From: a virus
Taxonomy: Duplodnaviria; Caudoviricetes
Strand: one strand, 5' to 3'
Virus record (IMG/VR): IMGVR_UViG_3300008255_000016
Coordinates: 1-50,655 of that record
Length of the DNA: 50,655 nucleotides
The notes under the pieces are model-generated. The model had not been told where the DNA came from and ran no database searches. It worked only from the letters and a program-made list of their open reading frames with translations. Positions 549-47,160 of the stretch are shown piece after piece. Made by a program: the position numbers and the translations under genes. Position 1 is the stretch's first letter. Each line of letters opens with the position of its first letter.

Positions 549-2288
549 ATGAGCTACCCCCCTCCGTACCAGCGCCTTTTCAACTTCAACCGGGACAAGA
601 ACAACGGTCTGGAGTCCCCTGATGCGGCCAAGCTCGACGCCGAACTCGACACCATTCAGGTCGTCGTCGGCATGCTGCGTGACCGGGTCAAGGCGATCAC
701 CAGCGCCGATGGTCGCCTGCGGAACGTGGCTTCGCCCCTCGCCGCCGCTCTGGTTGGCACCTGGACCGACACGACAACCGGCGTTCTCGATTACACCACC
801 ACGATCCCCTGGCAGCCCGCGTTCTCCGTGAACTCGGTGCTGGTGATGATCGGCTCGACGGTGTACCGCCCGGGCCAGCTCGCCAGCGTGCAGGACGATG
901 GTGGCTTCCTCGAAGTGAGCTTCCCGGTAGCGACTGGTTCCGGTGACCCCATCGTCGTGTGGGCCTTCGAGCCGGGCGCGGGGCTGCTGACCCAGCTTGC
1001 CAGCACCGCCGCTGGCGACGGGGCCTCGCTCATCGGGATCGAAGATGCCCTGGGCATCCTCGATGCCACGAACGTCGAGGACGCCCTGGCCGAACTCGCT
1101 GCGGAGGCAGACGCTTTCGTCACCGCTGTTGGCGACCTCGATCTCTACTTCAAGGTTGATGGCTCACGCGCCGCGACCGCCGACTGGGACCTGAGTGGGT
1201 TCAAGATCACCAATGCCGCAGACGGCGTGGCTGACGGCGACTTCGTCACGGTGCGCCAGATCGCGGGATTCATTGCCACCTGGAGCGACCTCCAGCGGTT
1301 CTACATGAAGCGCGACGGCACGACGGCGATGGCCGGGCCGCTGAACTTCGGCAACAACAAGGGCTACAACCTCGCAGACCCGGATCTCAACCAGCCACTC
1401 GACGCGGTGAACGTGCGCTCGCTTCTGCGTGCGATCTCGGTCAGCGGCGCGGCTCCAGTGGGTGTGGTGCTGCCATTCGTCGGCAGCGTGCCGCCTGCGG
1501 CTGAGTGGCTGGTCTGTGACGGCTCGGCCTACTCAGACGCGGCCTACCCGATCCTGACCGGACTGCTTGGAGGAGCGTACAAGCCCCCCGGTCTGCCTGC
1601 GCAGGGCTGCATCACTACCAAGTTCCCGGCGCTGGTGAGCGGCGACATTACCGCAGGCGTCATCACCACGCTGCCGCCCGTCAACGTCGTCGGGCAGGGC
1701 TACGAGCACATCCCACAGATCGTGTGCGAGAACACGGACGGTGGCGCGGCACCGACTGCCCAGCCGACGTTCTCGGTCGTCCTGTCCACCCTGGTCACTG
1801 ACGGCCCGAACGCTTCGGGCGGCGAGCCGACGATCACCCTGGTCTCCGGCGGCACCGGCATCCGGGCGGGTGCGGTCATCAAGGTCAATCCGGTGCGCGC
1901 GGCTGACCCGACGCTGCCTGCGTTCGCCCAGCTCCCCGCAGGATACTTCCGCGTCCCCGATCTGCGCGGTCGTGTGGTCATTGGCGTCGGCACCGAGAGC
2001 AAGACTCCTGGCATCGTCAACCCGCCGTCGCAGTCCGCAGGCGACACCTACGACGCGACCACCCGCGCGGTGGGAGACATCGGTGGCGAGGAGAAGCACC
2101 GGCTCACCGAAGCTGAGCTGGCGCGTCACGACCACGGTGTCTACCCGAGCGGGCCAAGCCATCGGCAGCGTGATAGTGGTGCTGGGGCCTTCGCGGGGGA
2201 CGCCACGCCGGGCTACGCTGGCAACGACGAGGCCCACAACACCGTGCCGCCGTACCACGTCCTGAACTACATCATCAAGGCGAAGTAA
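549..2288 (+). CDS. Tail fibre protein with a phage tail-collar domain
   Basis: Collar motifs PVGVVLPFVG..WLVCDGSAY..YPIL, FRVPDLRGRVVIGVG, GGEEKHRLTEAEL..HDH and HNTVPPYHVLNYIIKAK; fibre-type repeats KITNAADG..D.VT and NLADP..DAVN. Confidence 0.85.
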   Translation: MSYPPPYQRLFNFNRDKNNGLESPDAAKLDAELDTIQVVVGMLRDRVKAITSADGRLRNVASPLAAALVGTWTDTTTGVLDYTTTIPWQPAFSVNSVLVMIGSTVYRPGQLASVQDDGGFLEVSFPVATGSGDPIVVWAFEPGAGLLTQLASTAAGDGASLIGIEDALGILDATNVEDALAELAAEADAFVTAVGDLDLYFKVDGSRAATADWDLSGFKITNAADGVADGDFVTVRQIAGFIATWSDLQRFYMKRDGTTAMAGPLNFGNNKGYNLADPDLNQPLDAVNVRSLLRAISVSGAAPVGVVLPFVGSVPPAAEWLVCDGSAYSDAAYPILTGLLGGAYKPPGLPAQGCITTKFPALVSGDITAGVITTLPPVNVVGQGYEHIPQIVCENTDGGAAPTAQPTFSVVLSTLVTDGPNASGGEPTITLVSGGTGIRAGAVIKVNPVRAADPTLPAFAQLPAGYFRVPDLRGRVVIGVGTESKTPGIVNPPSQSAGDTYDATTRAVGDIGGEEKHRLTEAELARHDHGVYPSGPSHRQRDSGAGAFAGDATPGYAGNDEAHNTVPPYHVLNYIIKAK

Positions 2289-2291
2289 GCC

Positions 2292-3287
2292 ATGGCATAC
2301 GACGACTATCGCTTCGCGCCGCAGGGCCAGCAGAACCCCTGGATGCTCCAGGGGTCGCCGCAGCAGTTCTACGCGCCGAGTTCGTCGGTGTGGGGGAACT
2401 CGCTCAAGGGCGACACGTTTGGCAGTGATCTGCTAGCCAAAGGGTTGATGACAAATCCGATCACGAGGCCACTCGGCATCGCGCGCGGAGCGTTCTTCGG
2501 CAACCAGAACAAGCGCAAGCAGGAGGACGCCAAGAACGCGCGCCGCAACGCGGTTGAGCAGTACCGCCTTGGTGAGATGGGTCGCCTCGGTGATCGCCTC
2601 GGTCAGCAGGGCGCGGACGTTCGGGCGGATCTTGAAGGCGAGCTGCGGAATGCCCTGTATGCGGGCGGCGACATGGGTGACCAGGACGCCATGCAGAACG
2701 CGATGACGCAGTTCCAGCAGCGGGCGCAGCAGTACCTCATGGGTCGCCAGCGAGCCGGACAGGCGCGGCAGGTAGACGCGATGTTCGCGGATCCGAACCG
2801 GGCTGCTGACCGCGCGCGGCGCATGGGTGCCGAGCGTGAGCAGGGCCTCGCAGGCATCGCGGAGCAGTACCGCATCGGTCAGCGCGACAATGCCTTCAAT
2901 CAGGCGCGGCGCGGCATGCAGGGCAGCTCAGTCGATGTCGAGAAGCAGGGCCAGCTCGGGCGCGGGCGCGACACCGCAGCGATGGGACTCCAGTCGGGCC
3001 TCGATCAGCGGGCACAGCAGTACCGCCTGGGCGACCAGCAGCAGCGCGCGGCGCTGATGGGTCTCATCTACGCCGATGACCCGAACACCGCTGCGGCATT
3101 CAGTCGCACCCTTGAGGGGATCGGCAACCAGGGCAAGCTGCTCCAGGAACAGCAAGCCGTGCAGAGCCAGCTCTCAGCTCAGCGCGGCGCAGCCGCGACG
3201 GGCTACTCGCAGGCGCTCGGCGGGGCGATGAGCGCGGCAAGCAAGCCGCTCGGGTATTACATCGAACACCGTGGAGCAGGAGCATAA
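2292..3287 (+). CDS. Putative internal virion/ejection protein
   Basis: 331 aa, Gln/Ala/Gly-rich and helical; sits after the tail genes in a podovirus-like order. Confidence 0.55.
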   Translation: MAYDDYRFAPQGQQNPWMLQGSPQQFYAPSSSVWGNSLKGDTFGSDLLAKGLMTNPITRPLGIARGAFFGNQNKRKQEDAKNARRNAVEQYRLGEMGRLGDRLGQQGADVRADLEGELRNALYAGGDMGDQDAMQNAMTQFQQRAQQYLMGRQRAGQARQVDAMFADPNRAADRARRMGAEREQGLAGIAEQYRIGQRDNAFNQARRGMQGSSVDVEKQGQLGRGRDTAAMGLQSGLDQRAQQYRLGDQQQRAALMGLIYADDPNTAAAFSRTLEGIGNQGKLLQEQQAVQSQLSAQRGAAATGYSQALGGAMSAASKPLGYYIEHRGAGA

Positions 3288-4854: not shown

Positions 4855-7800
4855 ATGCCTGACGACTTCGACGCGCCGCCGGACGACTTCGATCAGCCGC
4901 CGGTCGCTACTGAACCCACACCAAAGCCCGCTCCCATCGACGATGGGATGGAGCCGCTGAACGGGTTCACATGGCGCAGTACCACCTCGCCGCGTCCGCG
5001 CCCCGGAGAAGACCCGCTCATGTGGGCGCGTGCGCGTGCCCGGCAGCAGCTTCACGACAATCGTCGCCTGTTGAAGCAGTCCCCACTCTCGGGCGATGCC
5101 GAGCGAGCGGTCGAGGATGAGCAGGCCGCGTACAATCTCGCAGCGTGGGTCACGGAGAACACGCAGCGGGAGCAAGAGCAGCGTGCGCGCGAGGAAGCGG
5201 CCCAGGCGGGTTTCGGCGGTCCGACTGCCCCGGGGCATTTCTCGTCTCACTTCGGTTCGGATCCTGTCGAACACCTGGAGATGGCGCATCAGGCGCTTGG
5301 CACGGGGAAGTCCACGAAGGATCAGCAGGGCAAGTGGCTCGCGGCGCTCAAGGGGGCCGTAGGCGCAGGCAAGGCTCCAATGGATCTGCTCGGGGGCCTC
5401 ATGGGGCCGTCGTCTCCAATCAGCGCCGCATCGCGGGAGAGCGAGCGCGGGATGGCAACGTGGAGCGATCAGTTCGCCCCACCCACGGAAGGCGAGCGGT
5501 ACGCGGAGATGGGTGGAGCCGTCGTTCCGTCTCTCATCCAGTCCGGCGGTGCCGGTGCGTTCGGTCGCTACGCCGGGCAGAGTCTTCTCACCAAGGCTGG
5601 GGTCCTCGGGCGTGGTGAACGTCTCGCCCAGGGGTTGGAGCCGTGGGCGATGCCTGCGGGCGTCGGCGCGTCGTCGATGGCCAACGAGATGTCACGGCTC
5701 GGTCAGGGTCCGGGCATCGATATGTTCTCCGAGGAGGGAGCAAAGCTCGCTGGTCAGTCCCTAGCCGAAGCCTTCGCCACTCGTCTCGGTGGGCGCTTCG
5801 AGCCGTTCGTGGATCGGTTCACGAAGCCCGGCCTGCGGAGCATTTTCCCGATCCTTGGTGAAGGTGGGGAAGGTGCGCTGGCCAGCGGCTTGCAGACCAC
5901 GATGACCACGGGGCAGACCCTCGCGGATGTTCCACGGTCCATGGTCGAAGGCGGCTTGTCCGAGATGGCTGGAGCGGGCTTCGCCCGGTCGGCGCAGGCT
6001 GGTATCGACCTCACCAACGCGGCGCAGAAGTCCTACCTCAACGCGCTCCGCATCCGGCAGGGCCTCGCTCCACTCCCGTCGTCTGAGGTCGAGGGGTCCG
6101 TGGCCCCTGCGCCGGTCAACGAGACAGCGCTTGCCGAGGTGCCTGGGGCGGATGTCTCCAACCAGATCGCAGACCAGCTCGCGGCGTTTGAGCAGGCCCA
6201 GGCGCTCGGCGTTCAGGTTCCTGGAAGCCGGTCGATCCTCAACCCGGCCACGCCGGACATGAGCAACGTCCCGGCCCTGCCCCCGACCCAGGCCGATCCC
6301 CTGTTCGGCGTCCTGCGGACCCGCAGTGGCAAGGGGGAAGGCGTCGGCGGGAAGCTCATCGAGTCGCAGCTTCCGCAGTCGGTGCTCGCTGCGCGCGAGG
6401 CCCAGGCACTCATCGACCAGCAGCCCACGCTCGCCGCTGATGCCCAGGAGCAGGATGTCGCTGCGCTGGCCCAGCAGGAGGCCCCCACGCCGGAGGGCGC
6501 GCAGTCCTATGAGCAGGCCATGCAGGAGTCCGTCGCCCGCCAGATGGACCTCGACAACGCTCCGGCCATCGAAGCCCAGCAGGCGGCGCAACGCGCCGCG
6601 CTGGCCGAGGAAGTCGCCCAGGATGAGGCCCGGATGCGGGCCGAGGCCGATGCGGCGGACATGGCTCGGCAGCAGGCCGAGATCGAAGCTGCCCGCGCCG
6701 AGGAGACCAAGGGCCGCAAGTTCGCGGAGGAGCTGGGGCTGACCAAGGGGAAGGCGGTCAAGCCGCCCCCCACCAGCACCACCCAGCCCGTTGAGATGGG
6801 CGTCCCCGCTGGGGAAGGCCCGGTTGACACGGATGTCGAGTCCGCACGCCGGATGGCGTACACGCTCGGGTTGACCCCTGGGAAGGCGGTCAAGCCGCCA
6901 CCCACCCAGGTCGCCCCCGAGACGGACCCGGACGCCGAACAGGCCCCCGCCGAGGACCCGCTAGACCGGGATCGCCGGATGGCCTACACCATGGGCCTGT
7001 CCCTGACGCCACCCAAGGCTGCGCCAAAGCCCAAAGCAGCCCCAAAGACGAAGGGCGAGGCCGCAGCGGCGGCGATGGCCCCGACGCCCGAGATCGCCCA
7101 GGAAACGACCCCGGAGGCTGCTCCAGAGGCCGAAGTCCAGGCTCTCAGTCAGGACCTCGCCACGGGGGAGACGGCCCCCGCCGACGAGGCAGCGGCAGTA
7201 GAGTCCGAACTGGCTCGTACCTTGGGTTGGGCCGATCCGGCAGCGGACACCCCACCTGTGTCCGAAGCTCCAGCTCCGGCTGTGTCTCCGGCCAAGGCCC
7301 CCGCTCCGGCAGTCGAGGAGGCAGGCGTGGCCCGCACGCCGACCACCATCGAGCCGACCAATGGGCCGACGCGCCGGGTCGCCATCGGCAACCGGCAGGA
7401 CATCGAAGTGTCCGACGCCCAGGACGATCAGGTCACGTTCACCCCCGAGAAGGGGAAGCCGCGCACCTATGGCGTGGGCCAGCTCCCCTCGGGTGAGTGG
7501 GTCCAGTGGGGGCATCACAAGGGCGGCGCGTCCCGGCGCGGCGTGCCAGATCGCGTGCTCGATGCCAACGGCAACCCGCTCGACACCTGGGAGGGTGCGC
7601 AGAACCGGATGGCCAAGTTCCCGGACAAGGCCGCTGCGCTGGCCGATCTCCAGGAGAAGTTCGGCGCTCCGGCTCCGAGCCTCGAAGCCGAGACGGCTGC
7701 CGAGCAGGAGCAGGCGCTCACCGTCGAGAACAACCTGCGTGGTCTGTTCCAGCGGTCGCGCACGCCATGGTCAGACGACCCGGAGGCCCGGCGTGCAGCC

Positions 7801-10800
7801 ATTGAAAGCAGCAAGACGCTCTCGATGGAGCAGGCCCAGGTCATGCTCGACCAGGAAGACACGCTCGCGGGCCTGCGCTCGCGCGTGCAGGAGAAGGGGC
7901 AGATCCAGGCCGCGACGGACGAGGCTCCGGTGGTCGAGACCCCGGAGACGCCGCGCGAGCCACGCACGCCGAAGGTCCTCAAAGAGTTCGGCATCGACCC
8001 GACCCTCCAGGGCCAGAAGCTCCTCGAAGCTGTCGAGGCGAAGATCGAAGCCGGTGAGATGACGGACGTGGATGCGGACCGGGTTGCCGCTGCAATGGCC
8101 GCAGACGCCAAGCCCGGCTCGTTCCTGTCCGGCAACAAGTCCCGGCGCGGCAGCGTCTCGTTCGGTGGCCCACCGAACCCGAACTCCCCTGTCAACAAGG
8201 TTCTCAAAGCGATTGAGGATCGGGCGGTCGCGGCGTGGAACACCCCGAAGGGACTGCGCCGGGCGATGGCTGAACTGGACGCGGAACGTGACGCGGCGCG
8301 GATGACCACGGATGTCCGCATCTCTGGCGAAGACCTCGCCTCGGCTGCGATGGCGTCGTTCGTCCTTCCGTCGCACCTCGCCAACACCCACACGGAGTTC
8401 GCCCCCGTCAAGGACGCGGCGACCGAGCGCACGCGCTCGATCCACGAGGATGTCGCCATCGCCGCACACGGCACCCCGGAGCTGATGGCCCTCCAGGGAC
8501 CAGAACGCGCGAAGGTCAACGCGGTGCTCGACCAGCAGCGGCGGGACGCGAAGGATTACACCGACGCGGAACTGGCTGAACGCGGACTCAACGACACGGA
8601 GATCCAGGCCGTTCACCAGCAGCGTGAGATGGTCAACGCGATCCGTGGGAACATCAAAGATGCTGCGTTCGAGCAGGCCGGGTTCGACCCCATGGACACC
8701 GCTGCGTTCAAGCAGAAGGCTGAGGAGATGGAGGCGGCGGGGGACCCGAAGGCCGCGTCCGCGATGGCGCTGGCCGAGGAGCTGGAAGCCATCGATGACA
8801 TGGCCAAGCCCGGGTACACGCCCTACCGCCGCCCCTCGGGCAAGTATGTGATCTACGCGAAGGACGCGGACGGGAAGACGATCTTCTCGACGCGCACCAA
8901 GAGCGCGAAGGAAGCGGTGAAGATCGCTGCCGAGGTGCGGGCCAAGTACGGCAACGCGGAGACTCCTCCGGCCCTGACGATCAGCGAGCAGAACGCTATC
9001 GACATGGCCTACCAGTTCGGCTCCACGCCCGCGCAGCTTGAGCGCATCGCCAAGCGGGCAGGCATGTCGGAGCGTGGGCTGGCTGAGCTGATGCAGCGCG
9101 TGGCCCCGAAGCTCGCCACCCGTGGAGCGCGCAGCAGCCTGCTGCACAGCGACGACATCCCTGGGTACGACACGGATCATGTGTCGTCGCTCCAGCGCAC
9201 CTACCTCGCTTCGGTGATGGCGCACCGCAACGCGCAGTTCCAGCGCGTCGTCGATACGCAGATGGAGGCGATGTCGAAGAACGGCAAGAGCCAGCTTGGG
9301 GACTACACCAAGAGCTACGCTTCCGAACAGCTCGACCCGGAGAGCAAGTCCGCGAACCTGATCCGGGCCGCGACGTTCTTCGGCACCTCAGCACTCAAGC
9401 CCGCGACCCTGCTCACCAACCTGACGCAGCCAGTCCTGTTCCATGCCCCGGAAATGATCGCTCTTGGTGCCTCGCCTGCGGTGTACCTCCGCACCAGCGC
9501 GGCGATGCTCAACAACCTGGGCGCGATCCCACGGGCCGCGTTCCACGCCGCCGCACAGAAGAACCTCGCAGCATGGAAGAAGTTCTCTCCCACGGAGGCG
9601 ATGATTCTCTCCTACGAGAAGCGTGCCCCGGAGTTCGGCAAGATCCTGCGGACGCTCTCGGATCGTGGTGAGCTGGGCGACAACATGATCGAGGCGTTCA
9701 GCGAGACGGGCAAGGGCAAGGGCCTTGCCTCCAGGATCGCTGCGGTCGCCTCGTCACCGTTCGCGGAGACGGAGCGCGTGAACCGCATGGCTTCGGCCAA
9801 GGTCGCTTACGACCTGTACAACCGGAACAAGAATGACCAGACGTGGTGGGCGAACGCGAAGAAACACGGCTACCGGGGACCGACCGAAGGCCCCAAAGCT
9901 GGGCAGACGTTCGTCGAGTTCGCCATCTCCCGCTCGAACTTCGAGTACGGCAAAGCGAACCGCCCACTCATCGGCGCGGGCAAGATCGGTGGCACAAACA
10001 TCAACATGCCCCCGGTCGGTGCGCTGCTCTACTCGATGAAGCACTTCCAGGTCAGCTCGCTGGGCACCGTGCTGCGGATGATCCGCAATCTGCCCCAGGG
10101 TGGGGAAGACCGCAGGGCTGCGATGGCCATGCTCACGGGCCTGCTCGCGGCTGGCGGCATCGCTGGTCTGCCGTTCGTGCAGCAGGGGTACAGCGTGATC
10201 CGTGAAATGGTCAACGCCGCAGGCGGGGACCTCAAAGGCTTCAACGAGGAAACCAACACCGCATTCAAGAACATCGAACAGTACACGGGCGAGTTCGGTG
10301 CGAACATCCTCAAGGGTGGTGCTGGCCGCGCACTCAAGCAGCCGGAACTGGAGAGCATCGGTCAGCGCACCGGACTCCAGAACATCGTACCCGAAGTGAC
10401 CTCCTGGCAGCAGATGGTTGGTGTCCCGGCCTCGGCGGTCACGCGACTGGTCAAGGATGTGGCCATCGCCAAGGACATGCTCACTGACAAGGGGTCCGAG
10501 GAGGCCAAGCAGATGCGCCCCGCGCAGGCGGTGGCCAACATCATCGACGATCTCGGCCTTCCGGTCGGCGCACTCTACCGTGCCAAGCGGCAGGCTGAGA
10601 CCGGAGACGTGATCGACCGCAGCGGACGGAAGGTCCACGGCACCACGATCAGCCCAGCCGGGACGGCGCTCGGGTTCCAGGACCCGTCGATGGCGGCGCA
10701 GCGTGAGATGCGTGAGTCCCAGCAGGAAGTCGGCAAGGCCAAGCTCGACCTCAAGGCAGGAGTCGTGCGCGATATCATGGAGAGTGCCAGCAGCGGAGAC

Positions 10801-11061
10801 GACACGCTGGCGAACTCGGCCATCGAACGCCTCGTGGCCCACAACAAGAAAGCCGCTGCGGCTGAGAAGTGGGATGACATCATCACTGACAACGAGGTGA
10901 AGATGTCCGTGAAGGGTGCGCTCATCGGGCAGCTCGACGGCCCGCTGTCGTTCAAGGCGATCCAGTCGGCTCCGGAACAGAACCGCCCGCGCCTGCTCGA
11001 ACTGCGCCGCTGGATCGAGAACGAGATCGAGGGCCGGAAAACAGACGAACCCGCCGAGTAG
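4855..11061 (+). CDS. Large internal virion/DNA-ejection protein (2068 aa)
   Basis: Last and largest late gene; Gly/Ala hydrophobic N-region, Pro/Ala/Glu-rich linker and helical C-terminal half with hydrophobic segment LTGLLAAGGIAGLPF. Confidence 0.65.
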   Translation: MPDDFDAPPDDFDQPPVATEPTPKPAPIDDGMEPLNGFTWRSTTSPRPRPGEDPLMWARARARQQLHDNRRLLKQSPLSGDAERAVEDEQAAYNLAAWVTENTQREQEQRAREEAAQAGFGGPTAPGHFSSHFGSDPVEHLEMAHQALGTGKSTKDQQGKWLAALKGAVGAGKAPMDLLGGLMGPSSPISAASRESERGMATWSDQFAPPTEGERYAEMGGAVVPSLIQSGGAGAFGRYAGQSLLTKAGVLGRGERLAQGLEPWAMPAGVGASSMANEMSRLGQGPGIDMFSEEGAKLAGQSLAEAFATRLGGRFEPFVDRFTKPGLRSIFPILGEGGEGALASGLQTTMTTGQTLADVPRSMVEGGLSEMAGAGFARSAQAGIDLTNAAQKSYLNALRIRQGLAPLPSSEVEGSVAPAPVNETALAEVPGADVSNQIADQLAAFEQAQALGVQVPGSRSILNPATPDMSNVPALPPTQADPLFGVLRTRSGKGEGVGGKLIESQLPQSVLAAREAQALIDQQPTLAADAQEQDVAALAQQEAPTPEGAQSYEQAMQESVARQMDLDNAPAIEAQQAAQRAALAEEVAQDEARMRAEADAADMARQQAEIEAARAEETKGRKFAEELGLTKGKAVKPPPTSTTQPVEMGVPAGEGPVDTDVESARRMAYTLGLTPGKAVKPPPTQVAPETDPDAEQAPAEDPLDRDRRMAYTMGLSLTPPKAAPKPKAAPKTKGEAAAAAMAPTPEIAQETTPEAAPEAEVQALSQDLATGETAPADEAAAVESELARTLGWADPAADTPPVSEAPAPAVSPAKAPAPAVEEAGVARTPTTIEPTNGPTRRVAIGNRQDIEVSDAQDDQVTFTPEKGKPRTYGVGQLPSGEWVQWGHHKGGASRRGVPDRVLDANGNPLDTWEGAQNRMAKFPDKAAALADLQEKFGAPAPSLEAETAAEQEQALTVENNLRGLFQRSRTPWSDDPEARRAAIESSKTLSMEQAQVMLDQEDTLAGLRSRVQEKGQIQAATDEAPVVETPETPREPRTPKVLKEFGIDPTLQGQKLLEAVEAKIEAGEMTDVDADRVAAAMAADAKPGSFLSGNKSRRGSVSFGGPPNPNSPVNKVLKAIEDRAVAAWNTPKGLRRAMAELDAERDAARMTTDVRISGEDLASAAMASFVLPSHLANTHTEFAPVKDAATERTRSIHEDVAIAAHGTPELMALQGPERAKVNAVLDQQRRDAKDYTDAELAERGLNDTEIQAVHQQREMVNAIRGNIKDAAFEQAGFDPMDTAAFKQKAEEMEAAGDPKAASAMALAEELEAIDDMAKPGYTPYRRPSGKYVIYAKDADGKTIFSTRTKSAKEAVKIAAEVRAKYGNAETPPALTISEQNAIDMAYQFGSTPAQLERIAKRAGMSERGLAELMQRVAPKLATRGARSSLLHSDDIPGYDTDHVSSLQRTYLASVMAHRNAQFQRVVDTQMEAMSKNGKSQLGDYTKSYASEQLDPESKSANLIRAATFFGTSALKPATLLTNLTQPVLFHAPEMIALGASPAVYLRTSAAMLNNLGAIPRAAFHAAAQKNLAAWKKFSPTEAMILSYEKRAPEFGKILRTLSDRGELGDNMIEAFSETGKGKGLASRIAAVASSPFAETERVNRMASAKVAYDLYNRNKNDQTWWANAKKHGYRGPTEGPKAGQTFVEFAISRSNFEYGKANRPLIGAGKIGGTNINMPPVGALLYSMKHFQVSSLGTVLRMIRNLPQGGEDRRAAMAMLTGLLAAGGIAGLPFVQQGYSVIREMVNAAGGDLKGFNEETNTAFKNIEQYTGEFGANILKGGAGRALKQPELESIGQRTGLQNIVPEVTSWQQMVGVPASAVTRLVKDVAIAKDMLTDKGSEEAKQMRPAQAVANIIDDLGLPVGALYRAKRQAETGDVIDRSGRKVHGTTISPAGTALGFQDPSMAAQREMRESQQEVGKAKLDLKAGVVRDIMESASSGDDTLANSAIERLVAHNKKAAAAEKWDDIITDNEVKMSVKGALIGQLDGPLSFKAIQSAPEQNRPRLLELRRWIENEIEGRKTDEPAE

Positions 11062-11072
11062 TCGGCGGGTTC
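11047..11072. terminator. Hairpin at the convergence of the two genome arms, probably a bidirectional terminator
   Basis: Perfect 11-bp stem GAACCCGCCGA/TCGGCGGGTTC with loop GTAG containing the stop codon; no clear U-tract. Confidence 0.6.
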
Positions 11073-11076
11073 AGCG

Positions 11077-11292
11077 TCACCAGAATGGTGTGACCTTCGG
11101 TGGGTCGTTCGCACAGGCGTGAGGCGTGCCTCCGATGGTCACCAACCTCCACCGGGTCCCCTGCATCTCCCACACCAGATCCTTCTCACCGCAGAACTTG
11201 CATGTGCCACGTTCGTCTCCGTGGTGTTCCGCTTCCGGGCGTCGGCGTGGGATCTTCGTGCCCGGGTGGTATCCGTATGGGGCGTCAGACAT
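11077..11292 (-). CDS. Small Zn-ribbon protein
   Basis: GTCKFCGEK...WRL...PHAC; last gene of the minus-strand operon. Confidence 0.6.
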   Translation of the reverse strand: MSDAPYGYHPGTKIPRRRPEAEHHGDERGTCKFCGEKDLVWEMQGTRWRLVTIGGTPHACANDPPKVTPFW

Positions 11293-11413
11293 GGCGGGCC
11301 AACCACTTGATCCCGAGCGAGAGCGCGTGGCATGCGCAGAGAATCAGGAAGGGGACGACGGCCAGCCCGAGGATCCCGAGGAGGATGCCCCCGAGCAGGA
11401 GGAGAAGGTTCAC
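11285..11413 (-). CDS. Membrane microprotein (42 aa, not in ORF track)
   Basis: GTG start overlaps the upstream TGA; MNLLLLLGGILLGILGLAVVPFLILCACHALSLGIKWLARHV. Confidence 0.6.
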   Translation of the reverse strand: MNLLLLLGGILLGILGLAVVPFLILCACHALSLGIKWLARHV

Positions 11414-11589
11414 GGGAGCATCCCATAGAGAACCCACATCATAACCAGAGGCGGCATCGGGTAGAGCAGCACCGAGCCGACAGCGCGATTGAGGCCACCT
11501 TTCGGGTGGGCCAAAAGCGCGACGAACACACAGAGCGCAGAGAGTAGGCCACAGATTGTGACGAGGATGGTCAGCGCGAGTAGGATCAT
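11410..11589 (-). CDS. Two-TM membrane microprotein (59 aa, not in ORF track)
   Basis: ATGA overlap with the upstream gene; MILLALTILVTICGLLSALCVFVALLAHPKGGLNRAVGSVLLYPMPPLVMMWVLYGMLP. Confidence 0.6.
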   Translation of the reverse strand: MILLALTILVTICGLLSALCVFVALLAHPKGGLNRAVGSVLLYPMPPLVMMWVLYGMLP

Positions 11590-11924
11590 CGGGGAATCTC
11601 CGTCTGTTCGCGGGCGTTCAGCAGATGCACCAGGGCCGCGACCAGCCCTTCGTTTCGTGGAATGTTCTTGTTGTAGGGGGTGCTGGCGTCGATGAGAGCA
11701 ATGGCAACACCGTCACAATACAACCACGACGGGTTGGTGTGCTTCGCGTGGTACTTCCCGAGCGGCATGGCGCTCAGGTAGATCCGCAGCAGGGCTTCGT
11801 CGTAGCGGGAAGCCTTTGCTTCGGCGGCTTCGATCTCGTTGCCCAACTGCCGGATCTCGCTGCCGACGATGATGGCGCGATCATCCTTGCTGCGCTCGCA
11901 CAATTCACGGGCGAATGGACTCAT
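11586..11924 (-). CDS. Hypothetical protein
   Basis: ATGA-coupled to neighbours; starts MSPFARELCERS. Confidence 0.6.
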   Translation of the reverse strand: MSPFARELCERSKDDRAIIVGSEIRQLGNEIEAAEAKASRYDEALLRIYLSAMPLGKYHAKHTNPSWLYCDGVAIALIDASTPYNKNIPRNEGLVAALVHLLNAREQTEIPR

Positions 11925-12208
11925 GGCGTCGGCCCTTTCTCGACGGTCGGCGGTGCAAGCGGTGGAAGCAGGCAACAGGTCGCTAGCCCCTCGCTGCCGG
12001 TGATGAGTAGCACGCGCTCGCCGGTCGGCAGCACGATGATCTTGGCATTCATGCCCCAGCCAACGTCGATCTTCTGCTCGACGGTCGGCTTCGTGGTTTG
12101 TTGCGCAAACGCCCCGGTGCTAGGCTTGACGATAAAGGGGATGGCGATGGCAGCGATGATCGTCAGGATCGCGCCAATAAGCACCCATTCGATGAGGGTC
12201 ATTTTCAT
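11921..12208 (-). CDS. Type IV pilin-like (N-methylation motif) protein
   Basis: MK-MTLIEWVLIGAILTIIAAIAIP aligns with the pilin helix FTLIELMIVVAIIGILAAIAIP, with Glu5 and Pro22 conserved. Confidence 0.7.
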   Translation of the reverse strand: MKMTLIEWVLIGAILTIIAAIAIPFIVKPSTGAFAQQTTKPTVEQKIDVGWGMNAKIIVLPTGERVLLITGSEGLATCCLLPPLAPPTVEKGPTP

Positions 12209-12612
12209 GGCTTGTCCTTCGCCGCCGCAGCGACGGGCTTCGGAGTGTGTTCGGTGATCCAGGCGTTGAGTATGGCGAGCAGCCGGGTGTGCGCGTCGGC
12301 GTTCAGGTTCGCCAGCGCCTCAACCGGGATGTCGAGGATGAATCGCTTCGGGGTGATCGTGTAGTCAATGGTCGGAGGGCAGCGATGGAGGTTGGCCACC
12401 ATCGCACCTTCGAGTTGGTTTGGCATGGTTGATTCCTTGGGCATGAGAGTGGCGGTGGACAGGGGCACGTCGCGCATCCGATCCACCGGGGCGGGGCCGT
12501 AGAATCGCTGGTATTGGTTGCGGCAGGATGCGTGCCACACCTGCCCGCCGCCGACCACCCAGGCAGTATCCCCATCCTCAACCCGCTTGGAGCAGCCAGG
12601 GCAGACGTTCAT
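12205..12612 (-). CDS. Hypothetical protein with N-terminal CxxC...WHxxC zinc finger
   Basis: CPGC-x19-HASC (WHASC); possible second in-frame start (AAGGA..ATG CCA AAC). Confidence 0.55.
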   Translation of the reverse strand: MNVCPGCSKRVEDGDTAWVVGGGQVWHASCRNQYQRFYGPAPVDRMRDVPLSTATLMPKESTMPNQLEGAMVANLHRCPPTIDYTITPKRFILDIPVEALANLNADAHTRLLAILNAWITEHTPKPVAAAAKDKP

Positions 12613-12878
12613 GATTTCTTGCGGAATATGATCTGGGTGCAGGCCACCCCTTTCGGTGGATCGTTCACGAGGACCGACAGGCTGAGATCACACAGCACGC
12701 TGCCGTCCTCCTGCACCTTGGTGGTAAGGAAGTGTTGGGTCAGGAATATCGCCAGCTTGTCTGCGATCCGCCCAGCCATCACCGACTGCGGGATGTTGGC
12801 CTTGTCCACCATCTCCCGAGCGATGACCCCTTTGATGTTCAGCACAACGACGTTCGAGGTGTAGGTCTTATCGGACAC
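12609..12878 (-). CDS. Hypothetical protein
   Basis: GGAGG RBS before GTG 12878; coupled to the downstream gene. Confidence 0.55.
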   Translation of the reverse strand: MSDKTYTSNVVVLNIKGVIAREMVDKANIPQSVMAGRIADKLAIFLTQHFLTTKVQEDGSVLCDLSLSVLVNDPPKGVACTQIIFRKKS

Positions 12879-13140
12879 GACGGATCCTCCGGGTAGCAGG
12901 CTGGGTCCTTGGGGCAGGGTGCGGGTCGAGAGTTCGACGCGGGTCAGTGACCGCCTCATGGAACGCAAGGTATGACCGTTGTTCTTGCGCTTGCGCTTCC
13001 GCTGCCGCGTGCTTCCAGGCTTCTGCGACCGAGACCGCGAGTTCGATGCGGGCGTAGAGCGTAGTCTTGTTGGAGCGGCGAGATACGCCAACCAGAAGGT
13101 CGGCGGGGCGTCGATAGTATGCGAGGGCATCGTTGCTCAC
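12868..13140 (-). CDS. Hypothetical protein
   Basis: GTGA overlap with the stop of the HicA-like gene. Confidence 0.5.
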   Translation of the reverse strand: MSNDALAYYRRPADLLVGVSRRSNKTTLYARIELAVSVAEAWKHAAAEAQAQEQRSYLAFHEAVTDPRRTLDPHPAPRTQPATRRIRRVR

Positions 13141-13334
13141 GGGGTTGGTGCTTTCTGGCGTAGGAGACGCCGGGCGGTGGCGAGTATGTTTCGACTCGCG
13201 CGGTTGTCGGACGGGGACACGGCGCATACGAGAAGTCCTCCAACGGGGTGCTTGAAGATGTGGTGCTTGCCAGTTCGGTGCAGAACGAATCCCATGTCTC
13301 TGAGCTGGTTCAACGTTTCACGATGGCTTGACAT
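13137..13334 (-). CDS. hicA: HicA-like mRNA interferase (dsRBD-fold toxin)
   Basis: 65 aa, basic; LRDMGFVLHRTGKHHIFKHPVG matches the HicA L..GF...R..G.H..F.HP pattern; GGAGG upstream. Confidence 0.7.
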   Translation of the reverse strand: MSSHRETLNQLRDMGFVLHRTGKHHIFKHPVGGLLVCAVSPSDNRASRNILATARRLLRQKAPTP

Positions 13335-13902
13335 CTTCCACCTCCGGCTCGATGTCGATGAACGCCTCGGGTTCGGTTGGTTGTGGATACCGAGCGGCCA
13401 GTTCTGCTAGACTCAGCGGTCGAAGATTACGAACCCCCGCTGGCGATAGATCCTGATTCCGGGCCATGAGTCGTTGACGCATCGCCTCCTGATACCGCTG
13501 CTCAATCGTGTTCATCTGCGCCTGGGCTTGAGCCATTGCTCGTAGACGAGCACGATGTTCGTTGTCCCCCTGCAACGCACGAATAGCACGCTGGATGTAG
13601 TCGGTTGAGTCCACCACATCTTCGTGGGTTCGAGCAGCCGCGTAGTTGATGGCCCCAGGTGCCGTGTTCGGGAGGGTGTCGGATATGGCCTGCTCGAAGC
13701 TCTCGTCCCACCGCATGGGAACACCTTGGAAGGTAGCAACATCATGCGGATTCATGTTCCGGAGCTGATTCTGCGCGGCCCGAAGGGCCTCACGCTCACT
13801 CGCGGAACGTCGGCCATCGTCAACACGTTCGTCAATCATGAGGCCAGTGTATGTTCTACCCCGGAGCTGGAAGTTCCCGGGGTCAGGTCGGTGACGTGGC
13901 AT
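13318..13902 (-). CDS. Hypothetical protein
   Basis: TAATG coupling to the RuvC-like gene; 194 aa. Confidence 0.55.
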   Translation of the reverse strand: MPRHRPDPGNFQLRGRTYTGLMIDERVDDGRRSASEREALRAAQNQLRNMNPHDVATFQGVPMRWDESFEQAISDTLPNTAPGAINYAAARTHEDVVDSTDYIQRAIRALQGDNEHRARLRAMAQAQAQMNTIEQRYQEAMRQRLMARNQDLSPAGVRNLRPLSLAELAARYPQPTEPEAFIDIEPEVEDVKPS

Positions 13903-14351
13903 TAGAAGCTCTCCAGGTAGGTGTGAAGGGGCACCCAGTCTTCGGGGTGCAGGTTGTGGAAGAACAGCATGGCCTCGCACTCGCGGAGGTCTTTCTTCTT
14001 CTGGACTGCGCCAGCGATCTTGTGTCGGGTCTTCTCCTCGTAGCCCTTGGTCCAGACGTTCGACGGGGCGACAAGGAACGTCACGGGAGGATGGGCTGCC
14101 TCGGCGTGCCGGGCGAGGGTCGCGGCCCACGCGACATTCCAGAGCGCCCACTTGGCGAGCTGGGTCATCGCCGCGTTCGATCCGTGCCCCCGGTTGAACG
14201 ACACCGGGGACGCGATCTCGAACAGCACGATGTCGTCAGGGCCATAGATGAGGCCCTGACACACGTCCCAGGGGGTAGCTCCCCGCCACGCGAAACCGTT
14301 CCGGTTCACCATGAAACTCTCGCGCAGATCGCAGTCTATCGCATAGATCAT
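13902..14351 (-). CDS. RuvC-like Holliday junction resolvase (divergent)
   Basis: MIYAID, VLFE, VAPSNVWTK and DLRECEA fit the spacing of RNase H-fold RuvC motifs. Confidence 0.55.
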   Translation of the reverse strand: MIYAIDCDLRESFMVNRNGFAWRGATPWDVCQGLIYGPDDIVLFEIASPVSFNRGHGSNAAMTQLAKWALWNVAWAATLARHAEAAHPPVTFLVAPSNVWTKGYEEKTRHKIAGAVQKKKDLRECEAMLFFHNLHPEDWVPLHTYLESF

Positions 14352-14560
14352 GCGTCGGAGGGGAACTTGCTGTCCGCGTAGGCTTTCGCCTGCGGGTCGA
14401 TGGCACGAGGCATGGGCGGCACGACATCTTCGCGCCGGGTCATGACGAGCAGGGCGCAGCGAGACAGGAACTCGCTCCGGTCGATGCCGATGCGCTTGCA
14501 CGTCCTGTCGAGCGAGGTCAGGAACTCCTGATCGACCGAGACGTTGATGTGTACTTTCAT
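14348..14560 (-). CDS. Ribbon-helix-helix (CopG/Arc-like) DNA-binding protein
   Basis: MKVHINVSVDQEFLTSLDRTCKRIGIDRSEFLSR: alternating beta strand, L.LD...G..RSEF. Confidence 0.8.
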   Translation of the reverse strand: MKVHINVSVDQEFLTSLDRTCKRIGIDRSEFLSRCALLVMTRREDVVPPMPRAIDPQAKAYADSKFPSDA

Positions 14561-25663: not shown

Positions 25664-26506
25664 TCAGTCCTTTCCTGATTCACGGCGGTCGTTCTCAACG
25701 ACAGCCTCGTAGTTGCGGATGGCGACCTCATCTTCCTGCCCGAGCATCAGCTCTAGCAGTTCTTCCTTGGTTATGCCTAGCTCGCGGCACACCTCATCAT
25801 CGTCGTTCTTATGCCGGGACCTCGAAGCCGTGACGATGGAGATGGCTGCGTCCTTGTGCGCGTCAGGCTTGGGCTTGGCCTTCCGCTTGCCCCACCGCTC
25901 ACGTAGATTGGTGCGGCCAGTGACGAGGAGCGGGGTCGTCTCGAAGTTCGCATACACGATGCGCTTGTACGATCCGTTGCTCCACCAACACCCAAGATCC
26001 CAGGTTCCTGCCCGCTCGTTGAGGATGAGCACGCGCCCCAGGCGTGTGAGGAACACCAGCTTGTTGCCCATGCCTGCGTAGCCGTCGATCAGGTGGATGG
26101 TAGCGGCGTTGTCCATCCAGTCGGCGGGCAGTTTCTTGAGCACATCCTCGACGAACGTCGCGGTGTCTGAGAGTCCGTCCTGCTCGCGCGCCTTGATCGG
26201 CAAGATCCCGTTGTGAACCATGGCACACTCATTCTTTTTGATCCAGAACGGGTGCGTCATGCTCTCGTCCCGCTTGCCGTGCGTGGCGATGCGGAAGTGG
26301 GCGACAGCAACAGCATCGCGCGGCACCATCGCCCAACAGTCGAGGAACTTGGCGAAGGTCATCAGCCCCTTCCAGACGTGCATCCTACCCCGATGCGCGA
26401 CCATGATACCAGCCCCGTGCGGGTTCGTCTGCCAACAGTTGTAGAGCGTGTCCTTGGTGATGGATTCACGATCCACCGTGTCAGGTTTCATCAGAATGAT
26501 GCACAT
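25664..26506 (-). CDS. Class II (Ntn) glutamine amidotransferase
   Basis: N-terminal nucleophile M-C2; NPHGAG, HFRIATHG, HPF, HNG and SDT motifs. Confidence 0.92.
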   Translation of the reverse strand: MCIILMKPDTVDRESITKDTLYNCWQTNPHGAGIMVAHRGRMHVWKGLMTFAKFLDCWAMVPRDAVAVAHFRIATHGKRDESMTHPFWIKKNECAMVHNGILPIKAREQDGLSDTATFVEDVLKKLPADWMDNAATIHLIDGYAGMGNKLVFLTRLGRVLILNERAGTWDLGCWWSNGSYKRIVYANFETTPLLVTGRTNLRERWGKRKAKPKPDAHKDAAISIVTASRSRHKNDDDEVCRELGITKEELLELMLGQEDEVAIRNYEAVVENDRRESGKD

Positions 26507-26508
26507 GA

Positions 26509-28020
26509 TTAGACCCCTGCCAGTTCACGCTTGGCTGCGCGGTTGATGATGGTTGCTAGGAGATTCGGATAGCGAGCGGCGTTCTCCGATACGAAGGCGT
26601 TGTAATCTGGACCCGAGGGCAGCAGACCACGCGTGGCGCAGTTCTTGCAGTAGAACATCATGCTCTCGACCGCCTCCAGGTTCGCAAAGAACCCGGCCTC
26701 CGCGATGGTGCCACGGAAGATGCGGAACTCGATAGTCTTGTTCGTGACGTTGACCGCCGTGTACTTCGTCGGTGACATCTCGCGCATACCAGAATCCAGG
26801 TCGGCAAAGTGTTGGGTCGGTGTCCCGCGCGGGTTTGCCCACTGGATCAGTTTGCTCTCCTCGCGCCTCGATAGGCTCAGGATCAGCGATGGGTTCATCT
26901 GCACGAACCGAAGCAGCACCTCGAGAGTACCATGCAGGAACGGTCGCTTGGTCACATGGACATGCATGCCACAGGTCGGGGCATCGTAGGACTTGTGCCC
27001 GGTCTCCCGCATCTTGGCGAGAACGGTCTTGAGCATGCCTGAACCTGCATCGCTCCGCATCCAATCCGATGAGAACGGATGGCTCACGTACTCGACACCG
27101 TGCTCCAATGATCCATCGTGCTTGGCGTAGAACAGATCGGGCGCGGTCTGCAATACCTCGTATGCCCGCTCAGATTCCTTGATGCCGCGAGGAAGCTCAG
27201 TTTCGATCTCGACACCCATGCACCACTCGTCCATGTTGAGCACCGGGACACGACCGCGTGTCGTGAAGAACGTCGGTCGCGGCTTGTGGCTGTAGCTCTG
27301 GATGCAGCGATCACGCACACACCCCGGGCAGGTGCCATTGCGCACCTCACCACGGCGCACCGCCCGATCACAGGTCGGGCATATCTCCATCCTGGCCTCG
27401 AAGCAGCGCGGGCACATGGGTGCGACACCCGGGGCTGCACGCATGTCCTCCCACATGATGTGGGTGTGGCACTCCGGGCACTCGCGCTCATCGAACTGAC
27501 GACACACCGGGCAGACCAGACCTCCATGCACCATGGTCAGCATGGTCGGGTCGCTGACCTGGGCACCACAACGACTGCACTCGGGCAGCAGCGCGCGGTC
27601 AGGTTCGTCGATCTCCTGGAATCCGGTGAGGCTCATCACTCGATTGCGTGTGAGCATCGCCTGTGGATCGCGCGCTAGTGCTTCCCGAGTTGCGAACCCG
27701 AAGGTGAAGCCCTGGCGTGACTGGATGCGACCGATGTCCGCCAGTCTGGTCAGCGAGTTTCGGACGCGCGAGAAGTCCACATCCCTCGGCGGTTCGATCA
27801 CCCGCTGCGCCTTGCGCGGACGGCTGGTGTCGAGCACTACCTTGGAGAGTTGGAGAGCGAGTTCGACTTGCGCTTGCGGTGGCAGAGCCTCCGCGACATC
27901 GGGCGAGAACTCATAGCCCGCAGGTTCGTGGATCGTGGGCGTGCGCGTGTTAGCCGCCGCGCGCTCCATCAGACGCCGCCAGATGGCGCGTCGATCTAGG
28001 GTGGGAGGGGATTCGGGCAT
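26509..28020 (-). CDS. Putative amidoligase (COOH-NH2 ligase, Amidoligase_2-like) with N-terminal Zn ribbons
   Basis: GVEIE, KHDGSL..GVEYVS, CGMHVHV, KYTAVN and TIEFRIFRGT; six CxxC pairs upstream. Confidence 0.88.
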   Translation of the reverse strand: MPESPPTLDRRAIWRRLMERAAANTRTPTIHEPAGYEFSPDVAEALPPQAQVELALQLSKVVLDTSRPRKAQRVIEPPRDVDFSRVRNSLTRLADIGRIQSRQGFTFGFATREALARDPQAMLTRNRVMSLTGFQEIDEPDRALLPECSRCGAQVSDPTMLTMVHGGLVCPVCRQFDERECPECHTHIMWEDMRAAPGVAPMCPRCFEARMEICPTCDRAVRRGEVRNGTCPGCVRDRCIQSYSHKPRPTFFTTRGRVPVLNMDEWCMGVEIETELPRGIKESERAYEVLQTAPDLFYAKHDGSLEHGVEYVSHPFSSDWMRSDAGSGMLKTVLAKMRETGHKSYDAPTCGMHVHVTKRPFLHGTLEVLLRFVQMNPSLILSLSRREESKLIQWANPRGTPTQHFADLDSGMREMSPTKYTAVNVTNKTIEFRIFRGTIAEAGFFANLEAVESMMFYCKNCATRGLLPSGPDYNAFVSENAARYPNLLATIINRAAKRELAGV

Positions 28021-46428: not shown

Positions 46429-47160
46429 ATGTCTCTCGCACTACCACCGACCCTCGCAGAAATCCGGCTCGAAACGCTCGCCAGTTGCGGCCTCGCAACT
46501 GAGGGGAACATTCCGCGCAACATCCAGGACGTGATCGACACCCGCATCCGGCGGGCGCACGCGATGCTGTACGAGAACAGCCCATGGCTGCGCACCCTGG
46601 TGGAGCGCGAGATCCCTGTCGAGGATAACGTCACCGACTACGATGTCCCTGACGACACCGAACCGGGTAAGATCGAAGCCGTAGGCATCCGTCGCGTTGA
46701 TGATGGCTGGGTCTTCCGGCTGGAGCCGGGCATCCGGCTGGGCGAAACGAACGTCCTCAAGCCGCGCATGTCGCTCTCGTACCCGATGCGGTACACCTTC
46801 ATCAACCAGATCATGCGGGTCGAGCCTGCGCCGACCCACCCCTACTATGACGTGCTGATGCTCCAGTACCGGCAGGTGCCGGGGCCGCTGATGCAGGACA
46901 GCGAGCGGGTGGTCGTGGATGGCATCGCGGTGAAGATGCTGGCCGAGATCCTGGTCAAAGAACACTTCGGTGGACAGGACACCCAGGCGCTTCGCCGGGA
47001 TCTCCAGAGCTACGCAGACTCGATCAAGTCCGACCAGAGCGACGGCGAGGGCCTCCAGATGGGCGGTCACCAGTCGGCCTACGCGCAGACCCAGGCCCGC
47101 AACCGCTTCGTGCGCGCGGGTGCAGGCTGGGCTAATTGGCAAAACTGGAGGCCCTGGTGA
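46429..47160 (+). CDS. Head-tail adaptor/tail tubular protein A-like
   Basis: TLAEIR....., W.....Y.VP.D, MRVEPAP....L.Y pattern and position. Confidence 0.65.
   Translation: MSLALPPTLAEIRLETLASCGLATEGNIPRNIQDVIDTRIRRAHAMLYENSPWLRTLVEREIPVEDNVTDYDVPDDTEPGKIEAVGIRRVDDGWVFRLEPGIRLGETNVLKPRMSLSYPMRYTFINQIMRVEPAPTHPYYDVLMLQYRQVPGPLMQDSERVVVDGIAVKMLAEILVKEHFGGQDTQALRRDLQSYADSIKSDQSDGEGLQMGGHQSAYAQTQARNRFVRAGAGWANWQNWRPW

Follow-up and report, generated by a model that had tools for sequence, protein, structure and literature searches.

The window, a complete virus record of 50,655 bp with direct terminal repeats, carries on its minus strand a gene of 95 codons plus a stop (11921-12208), whose product is predicted to be a small phage protein, either exported or membrane-anchored. 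The reading favoured here, with slightly better than even confidence, is that of an accessory phage protein that displays a beta domain in the periplasm and whose tether is a decayed prepilin-type signal. A tether is more likely than a true pilin decoy, because the pilin-like front end is one of three interchangeable anchors that relatives place on the same domain.

An earlier note, made from the letters of this DNA, had marked the same open reading frame as a phage mimic of type IV pilins and had left its strand unstated. The frame is confirmed and lies on the minus strand. Its likely start is the first ATG, because a Shine-Dalgarno sequence (AAGGA, 12215-12219, minus strand) is found 6 nt 5′ of this codon, because the codon overlaps the stop of the upstream gene (12205-12612) in an ATGA (12205-12208, minus strand), and because the second ATG is not conserved in P0002, the closest relative, where residue 3 is Ile. 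The same features disfavour the idea of the note that a ready-matured pilin is translated from the second ATG. The ATGA is read as translational coupling to the upstream gene. At the other end, the TGA of the gene overlaps the ATG of the downstream gene (11586-11924), again as an ATGA (11921-11924). A V-E-K ending recurs across the family and is also found on neighbouring small ORFs in one of the metagenomic loci described below (L003); we take it to stem from the ribosome-binding site of the gene that follows. An ORF on the opposite strand (11625-12257, plus) was rejected by its codon-position pattern as a shadow of minus-strand genes.

The protein is organized, from its N-terminus and with all coordinates on the minus strand, into a two-residue leader, a helix, a linker, a domain and a tail. 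The leader is Met-Lys (12203-12208) and places Lys at position -1, as judged from the translation and from the alignment with canonical members of the family. Residues 3-26 (12131-12202) form a hydrophobic helix resembling class III (type IV pilin) signals, which the structural model, an HMM and the alignment mark as the predicted membrane anchor. The linker, residues 27-41 (12086-12130), is coil in both AlphaFold2 models and is the block with the lowest pLDDT; its residues 33-35 read Ala-Phe-Ala, a possible signal-peptidase I site picked out by eye rather than by a predictor. Residues 42-82 (11963-12085) make up a conserved four-strand beta-meander domain, delimited by the 47-sequence alignment and AlphaFold2, whose core motif is VLPTGERVL, then CC, then LLPP. 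The remaining residues 83-95, with the stop (11921-11962), form a Pro-rich tail, taken from the sequence and the ORF list.

The pilin-like character of the helix, the point of departure of the earlier note, stands up well. Taking Met3 as +1 puts Glu7 at +5 and Pro24 at +22, as had been noted, and a hand count reproduces the 13 identities over the 22 positions of residues 3-24 with the pilin consensus used there; T-L-I-E (+2 to +5) and A-A-I-A-I-P (+17 to +22) are among them. The expected stretch of about 21 hydrophobic residues broken by Glu at +5 is present, the hydrophobic run extending to Pro24. An N-terminal HMM was built from 13 family members with canonical prepilin motifs and used to score the 471 ORFs of at least 40 aa in the window. 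The query reaches 20.7 bits (E 5.5e-6) and the runner-up 4.6 bits; P0002 scores 23.9 bits, and P0003, in which Glu5 is gone, 2.0 bits. The helix aligns in register with the 13 canonical members, and the Glu is invariant in all 15 aligned rows. On sequence grounds, the resemblance to a type IV pilin N-terminus is therefore judged to be real, in register and beyond chance, given the gap between 20.7 bits and the 4.6 bits of the next window ORF. The HMM and the in-register alignment thus bear out the assignment of this N-terminus to the class III signals.

Public models see much less of it. The N_methyl HMM search suggested in the earlier note comes out empty for the query, PF07963 giving no match at E up to 10, nor does this model match anywhere in the 50,655-bp record; the curated cut-offs of PF07963 and TIGR02532 are not reached by the query. 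Its sole NCBIfam match with E below 0.01 covers the N-terminal end of a PilA model (E 0.0043) and scores 17 bits where the cut-off is 400. For P0002 there are weak N-terminal matches to five pilin or pseudopilin models, PilA, PpdD, GspG, a Verru_Chthon cassette protein and ComGC.

The leader is where the query departs from a prepilin. Instead of Gly (or the tolerated Ala) at -1 after a short hydrophilic leader, it has the Lys of its Met-Lys leader, exactly as the earlier note had read from the translation. The available text of PMC4471445 describes Gly at -1 as critical for prepilin processing and Glu5 as needed for assembly and not for cleavage, and PilD is reported to cleave after Gly or Ala in the accessible part of PMC3244431. 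The query should thus not be cuttable by prepilin peptidase, its -1 residue being neither Gly nor Ala, which supports the claim that it lacks a cleavable -1 residue. A lipobox is also missing, there being no Cys before residue 78. In the clade of the query, the leader is down to two residues and +1 is Met or Ile instead of Phe. Together with the loss of Glu5 in P0003, the short leader and the +1 change suggest that the pilin features are decaying within this clade.

Relatives reveal how unusual this front end is. A word-indexed search returned 10 proteins including the query, and their alignment showed a conserved C-terminal half and differing N-termini. Among the closest nine relatives, seven carry a lipoprotein signal with a lipobox Cys, one carries a Sec-like signal, and the pilin-like helix is found only in P0002. 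A profile search of 1.84 billion representatives then gave 46 proteins at E up to 1e-3, and the classification set comprises 47 short members, the query included. Five long repetitive proteins were left out before classification: P0029 and P0038 were judged on inspection to be spurious repeat matches, and P0032, P0034 and P0042 were left out by pattern alone, since they match in many short stretches as P0029 and P0038 do.

Sorted by regular expression (20 of the lipoboxes by regular expression and two by eye), the 47 members fall into 22 with a lipoprotein signal, 15 with a canonical prepilin motif, seven with a plain transmembrane anchor, two with the truncated Met-Lys form (the query and P0002 only) and one that is ambiguous, P0003, whose N-terminus resembles an ordinary Sec signal. 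Residue -1, which the earlier note had singled out for comparison across homologues, gives a divided answer. The 15 canonical members have Ala (12) or Gly (three) in this position, followed mostly by F-T-L-I-E, and the Met-Lys form has Lys. Loss of TLIE and Glu5 among homologues, which would have counted against the pilin interpretation, is not seen family-wide, and all 17 pilin-type members retain Glu5. PF07963 is matched by 10 of the 47 members at E up to 0.01 (best 1.5e-7), TIGR02532 likewise by 10 of 47 at E up to 0.01, and three members carry prepilin-type protein names in a source database. As the defining part of the protein, however, the pilin-like segment does not hold, lipoprotein signals being present in seven of the nine closest relatives and 22 of the 47 overall. 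The CC pair that had been remarked upon does consist of the sole cysteines of the query (C78 and C79), and it is conserved only in part of the family.

Some members combine features in unexpected ways. P0016 has Ala at -1 and Glu at +5, as in the canonical prepilin motif, and a Cys ending its hydrophobic segment, at the position where relatives have the lipobox Cys; judged by its sequence, it may be an intermediate between anchor types. P0020, P0049 and P0052 bear N-terminal extensions of 54 to about 95 residues before the anchor, two of them alike. Either the starts are mis-called, or the extensions are genuine, cytoplasmic and far longer than normal prepilin leaders.

A tree was built from 58 columns of the beta domain alone; its deep parts are weak, as 25 of 44 inner branches are unresolved. 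Its well-supported tips pair proteins with different anchors. P0022 and P0024 are sisters (100/100) with a transmembrane and a lipoprotein anchor, respectively; P0049 and P0051 (99/93) pair a pilin-type with a transmembrane anchor, and P0026 and P0037 (97/94) a lipoprotein with a pilin-type anchor. P0002 and P0003 (96/81) also differ, the former with the Met-Lys pilin-like helix and the latter with its ambiguous, Sec-like N-terminus. Overall, the domain tree requires at least 17 changes of anchor class. Because the near-identical domains of P0022 and P0024 sit behind unrelated N-termini, this pair points to module exchange rather than gradual drift.

The earlier note had seen in the C-terminal part the tiny head of a pilin. 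Tiny it is, 71 aa (residues 25-95) following the helix, of which residues 42-81 form four beta strands in the AlphaFold2 model. With the 47-sequence alignment, this model has a mean pLDDT of 85 (67 for an earlier model with 14 sequences), a helix at 5-26, coil at 27-41, and strands at 42-50, 53-59, 65-70 and 76-81, the strand block reaching pLDDT 87-92. Gly63, Glu64, Arg65 and Pro82 are invariant across the 47 sequences. A pilin head is absent from the model: the helix ends at residue 26 and gives way to coil, no alpha1-C helix is packed on the sheet, and no pilin appears among the structural matches listed. Foldseek against PDB and BFVD returned no match at E up to 0.001, an exhaustive VIA-align search reached a best Z of 5.0 with generic four-strand beta-meanders or single propeller-blade units, and the scores of a look-alike search in the ESM Atlas are all below 0.9. 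With all 47 members scanned, no Pfam or PHROGs v4 family covers the beta domain.

This small domain is nevertheless held nearly constant. Over a 27-codon core, the query differs from three metagenomic homologues (L001-L003) at 18-20 third positions and by just 2-3 amino-acid changes, and because of this disparity the codon comparison indicates that the domain is under strong purifying selection.

The three homologues lie on short metagenome contigs and encode lipoprotein versions. At L001, the neighbours of the family gene include a small ORF and a large one that is transcribed divergently. An all-against-all BLASTP of window ORFs with those of L001-L003 found only the family gene, with its antisense shadow, in common, and no neighbour gene is shared between the four readable loci. 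Because nothing else is common to the window and these loci, the family gene behaves, as far as gene content can tell, as a rare, solitary, accessory gene that moves as a single cassette. At L003, the family gene is surrounded by small membrane ORFs, a run of which (1275-2758, plus strand) has stop/start overlaps and K/R-V-E-K/R endings; the shared ending probably reflects a repeated ribosome-binding and coupling cassette. The run includes an ORF (2504-2758, plus) that is identical to P0015 and in which a distantly paralogous beta domain follows a plain membrane anchor.

Elsewhere, the family is scarce. Positions 10500-14500 have no blastn match in GenBank phages. Used as tblastn query, the protein gives a single chance-level row (E 7) against 50,697 GenBank phage records and no match against 72,556 plasmids; the canonical member P0033 has no tblastn match in phages, possibly through the low-complexity filter. 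Pattern scans of IMG/VR contigs (with P0031 and P0036 among the queries) and of species-representative genomes confirmed no relative.

Within the window, the gene belongs to a leftward block of about 11.1-33.0 kb that encodes a DNA polymerase, a helicase, a Cas4/RecB-like exonuclease, an amidoligase and a HicA-like protein. The rightward blocks carry the large terminase, portal, major head protein, tail fibre and SU10-type adaptor. Its placement in the non-structural arm, claimed earlier, is thus correct and can be specified as the leftward replication arm, and the remark that no integrase is visible agrees with the 42 window genes scanned, none of which encodes one. No pilus, secretion, holin or endolysin gene was recognised among the same 42 genes, and the window holds no tRNAs. 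Coupled by ATGA overlaps, the gene lies upstream of small membrane ORFs and of a terminator-like hairpin with a 12-bp stem and a T run (11046-11073, minus strand), which ends the leftward operon.

Several neighbours deserve mention in their own right. Just downstream in the same operon are ORFs of 59 aa (11410-11589) and 50 aa (11285-11437), both on the minus strand and each with two hydrophobic segments by eye; the 59-aa ORF has no PHROG match. Three genes upstream of the family gene lies that of the HicA-like toxin (13137-13334, minus; 65 aa; phrog_2053, E 6e-12; phrog_353 "toxin", E 6.5e-5), and the ORF downstream of it (12609-13130, minus), which has no family match, could be a candidate antitoxin. 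Farther away, adjacent glutamine-amidotransferase-like and amidoligase-like genes (25664-26506 and 26509-28020, minus) hint at a module for nucleotide or DNA modification or for peptide ligation. Convergent with the leftward operon, an Ala/Glu/Pro-rich protein of 2,068 aa (4855-11061, plus) ends the rightward structural block and may be an internal virion or ejection protein. The SU10-type head-to-tail adaptor (46429-47160, plus; PF24175, E 7.7e-7, above cut-off) suggests that the virion is podovirus-like. Identity of the large terminase to its GenBank phage counterparts does not exceed 42%, and the matching phages come from mixed hosts.

These observations can be assembled into a model. A gene of the replication (early) arm would encode an accessory protein whose working part is the four-strand beta domain of about 40 residues, displayed in the periplasm, by its predicted topology, on a Pro-rich tether. 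Relatives deliver this domain on any of three interchangeable N-terminal modules, of the lipoprotein, prepilin-type (class III) or plain transmembrane kind. A membrane-tethered periplasmic protein is preferred because periplasmic display is the common denominator of these three anchor types. In the query and P0002, the prepilin-type helix would have had its leader shrunk to Met-Lys, leaving prepilin peptidase unable to cut. The query helix would most likely serve as an uncleaved N-in/C-out signal anchor, or possibly as a long Sec signal cut at 33-35. The domain itself may bind a conserved envelope or periplasmic target of the host, with the exclusion of superinfecting phages as the most likely outcome, or some other remodelling of the envelope during infection. 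The non-structural arm, the predicted periplasmic display and the solitary-cassette behaviour are indirect hints, and the proposed superinfection-exclusion role is drawn by analogy with small envelope proteins of other phages.

One feature resists an account in which the helix only anchors. Glu5 is a charged residue inside a membrane helix, yet all pilin-type members have it, and F-T-L-I-E persists across clusters that are less than 50% identical to one another. Unless capture of the modules was recent, this points to selection for some property peculiar to pilins rather than for mere anchoring.

The main rival, which carries real weight although it is unlikely, is a true pilin mimic, whose uncleavable helix would join the inner-membrane pilin pool of the host and stall the assembly platform of type IV pili or of type II secretion, or occupy the peptidase. 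A phage receptor would be removed or secretion blocked, and canonical relatives, having Ala or Gly at -1, would undergo processing and could be incorporated into filaments as minimal minor pilins. It draws on the N-terminus in register with class III signals, the constancy of Glu5, the relatives matched by PF07963 or TIGR02532 and named prepilin-type, and the published requirements for Gly or Ala at -1 and for Glu5 (PMC4471445 and PMC3244431, in the parts available). It must contend with the lipoprotein signals and the seven plain anchors that carry the same domain, the former on proteins unable to enter a pilus, with sister sequences that swap anchors, and with P0003, the closest protein by its domain, which lacks Glu5. 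The model without an alpha1-C helix on the sheet and the scan of 42 window genes without pilus or secretion functions also weigh against it. A variant, somewhat less likely still, would treat the family as phage "minimal pilins": a genuine prepilin signal, in most cases with the unusual Ala at -1, would feed the constrained domain into the host machinery for type IV pili or type II secretion, the Met-Lys form would be an uncleavable derivative kept in the inner membrane, where it would poison pilin processing or assembly and remove the receptor, and the lipoproteins would arrive at the same periplasmic target by a different route.

A slightly more doubtful alternative retains periplasmic delivery and dispenses with the anchor. 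Signal peptidase I would cut after Ala-Phe-Ala at 33-35 and free the beta domain as a soluble periplasmic protein. An Ala-x-Ala follows the hydrophobic segment in the query, P0002 and P0003 (by eye), and the P0003 N-terminus looks like an ordinary Sec signal. The hydrophobic helix is however about 22 residues in length, with a further 8 residues before the candidate site, both of which are long for a cleaved signal, and most relatives are tethered by lipid or helix. A spanin-type lysis component that links or fuses membranes late in infection is very unlikely, for although many relatives are small Pro-rich lipoproteins with cysteines and one of the 47 members matches a P2 Rz1-like NCBIfam model (E 0.001), no holin, endolysin or partner spanin is adjacent or among the 42 scanned genes, neighbours are not conserved, the domain also occurs on inner-membrane anchors, no C-terminal membrane segment is present and the gene lies in the replication arm rather than in a lysis cassette.

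If the tethered-domain reading is true, the family represents a new and very strongly conserved periplasmic phage domain, absent from Pfam, PHROGs, and the GenBank phages and representative bacterial genomes searched. Three anchors on one domain would then serve as a natural experiment, showing any contribution of class III signals beyond anchoring, and as a handle on whether phages use prepilin signals as generic tethers or as an entry to the pilus or secretion pathway. It also raises the question of which envelope target keeps the domain near-invariant with synonymous sites close to saturated.

The closest comparison is with type IV pilins and type II secretion pseudopilins. Like these, the query joins a hydrophobic N-terminal helix, marked by T-L-I-E at positions +2 to +5 and a Pro at +22, to a four-strand antiparallel sheet, and 15 of its 47 relatives have the full pilin motif with Ala or Gly at -1. 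Unlike them, it has a leader of two residues, Lys at -1, Met at +1 and no PF07963 match. Pilins have a continuous alpha1 of about 50 residues whose C-terminal half packs against a sheet of four strands, whereas the query helix stops at 26 and its "head" has about 40 folded residues, and most of its relatives are not pilin-like. Several PHROGs of pilin type (phrog_3433 "pilin", phrog_11263, phrog_27437, phrog_11596 and phrog_13280) match 3 to 8 of the 47 members by their N-termini at E up to 0.001. These matches are mostly confined to the N-terminal segment (ranges are given for the query, where they cover residues 3-25 and are weak, E 0.065-0.12), and no PHROG family outside the pilin-type groups matches the 47 members.

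Modular pilins such as Streptococcus sanguinis PilB offer a second parallel, a class III N-terminus carrying an unrelated module. Those described in the accessible part of PMC8179133 combine a complete pilin module with a further domain, and their genes belong to pilus operons. By contrast, the query is phage-borne, has no pilin module, and rides on a carrier that can be swapped for a lipoprotein signal.

Some phages are known to achieve superinfection exclusion by disabling type IV pili, with proteins such as D3112 Gp05, DMS3 Aqs1 and Pf4 pVII, which act on the cytoplasmic side through PilB, PilC or PilJ and are not pilin-like, according to the available portion of a 2024 review (PMC11436027); that portion mentions no pilin mimic. 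The query resembles them as a small accessory phage protein that could remove a pilus receptor, as the earlier note had proposed. A search of open-access papers and bioRxiv found no description of a phage-encoded pilin mimic or of a class III phage protein. T5 Llp, the Cor proteins of phi80 and N15, and T4 Spackle are small phage lipoproteins or periplasmic proteins that exclude other phages at the envelope. The resemblance of the query to these proteins lies in its proposed mode of action and is one of analogy: a small phage domain held at the envelope, where it would keep other phages out.
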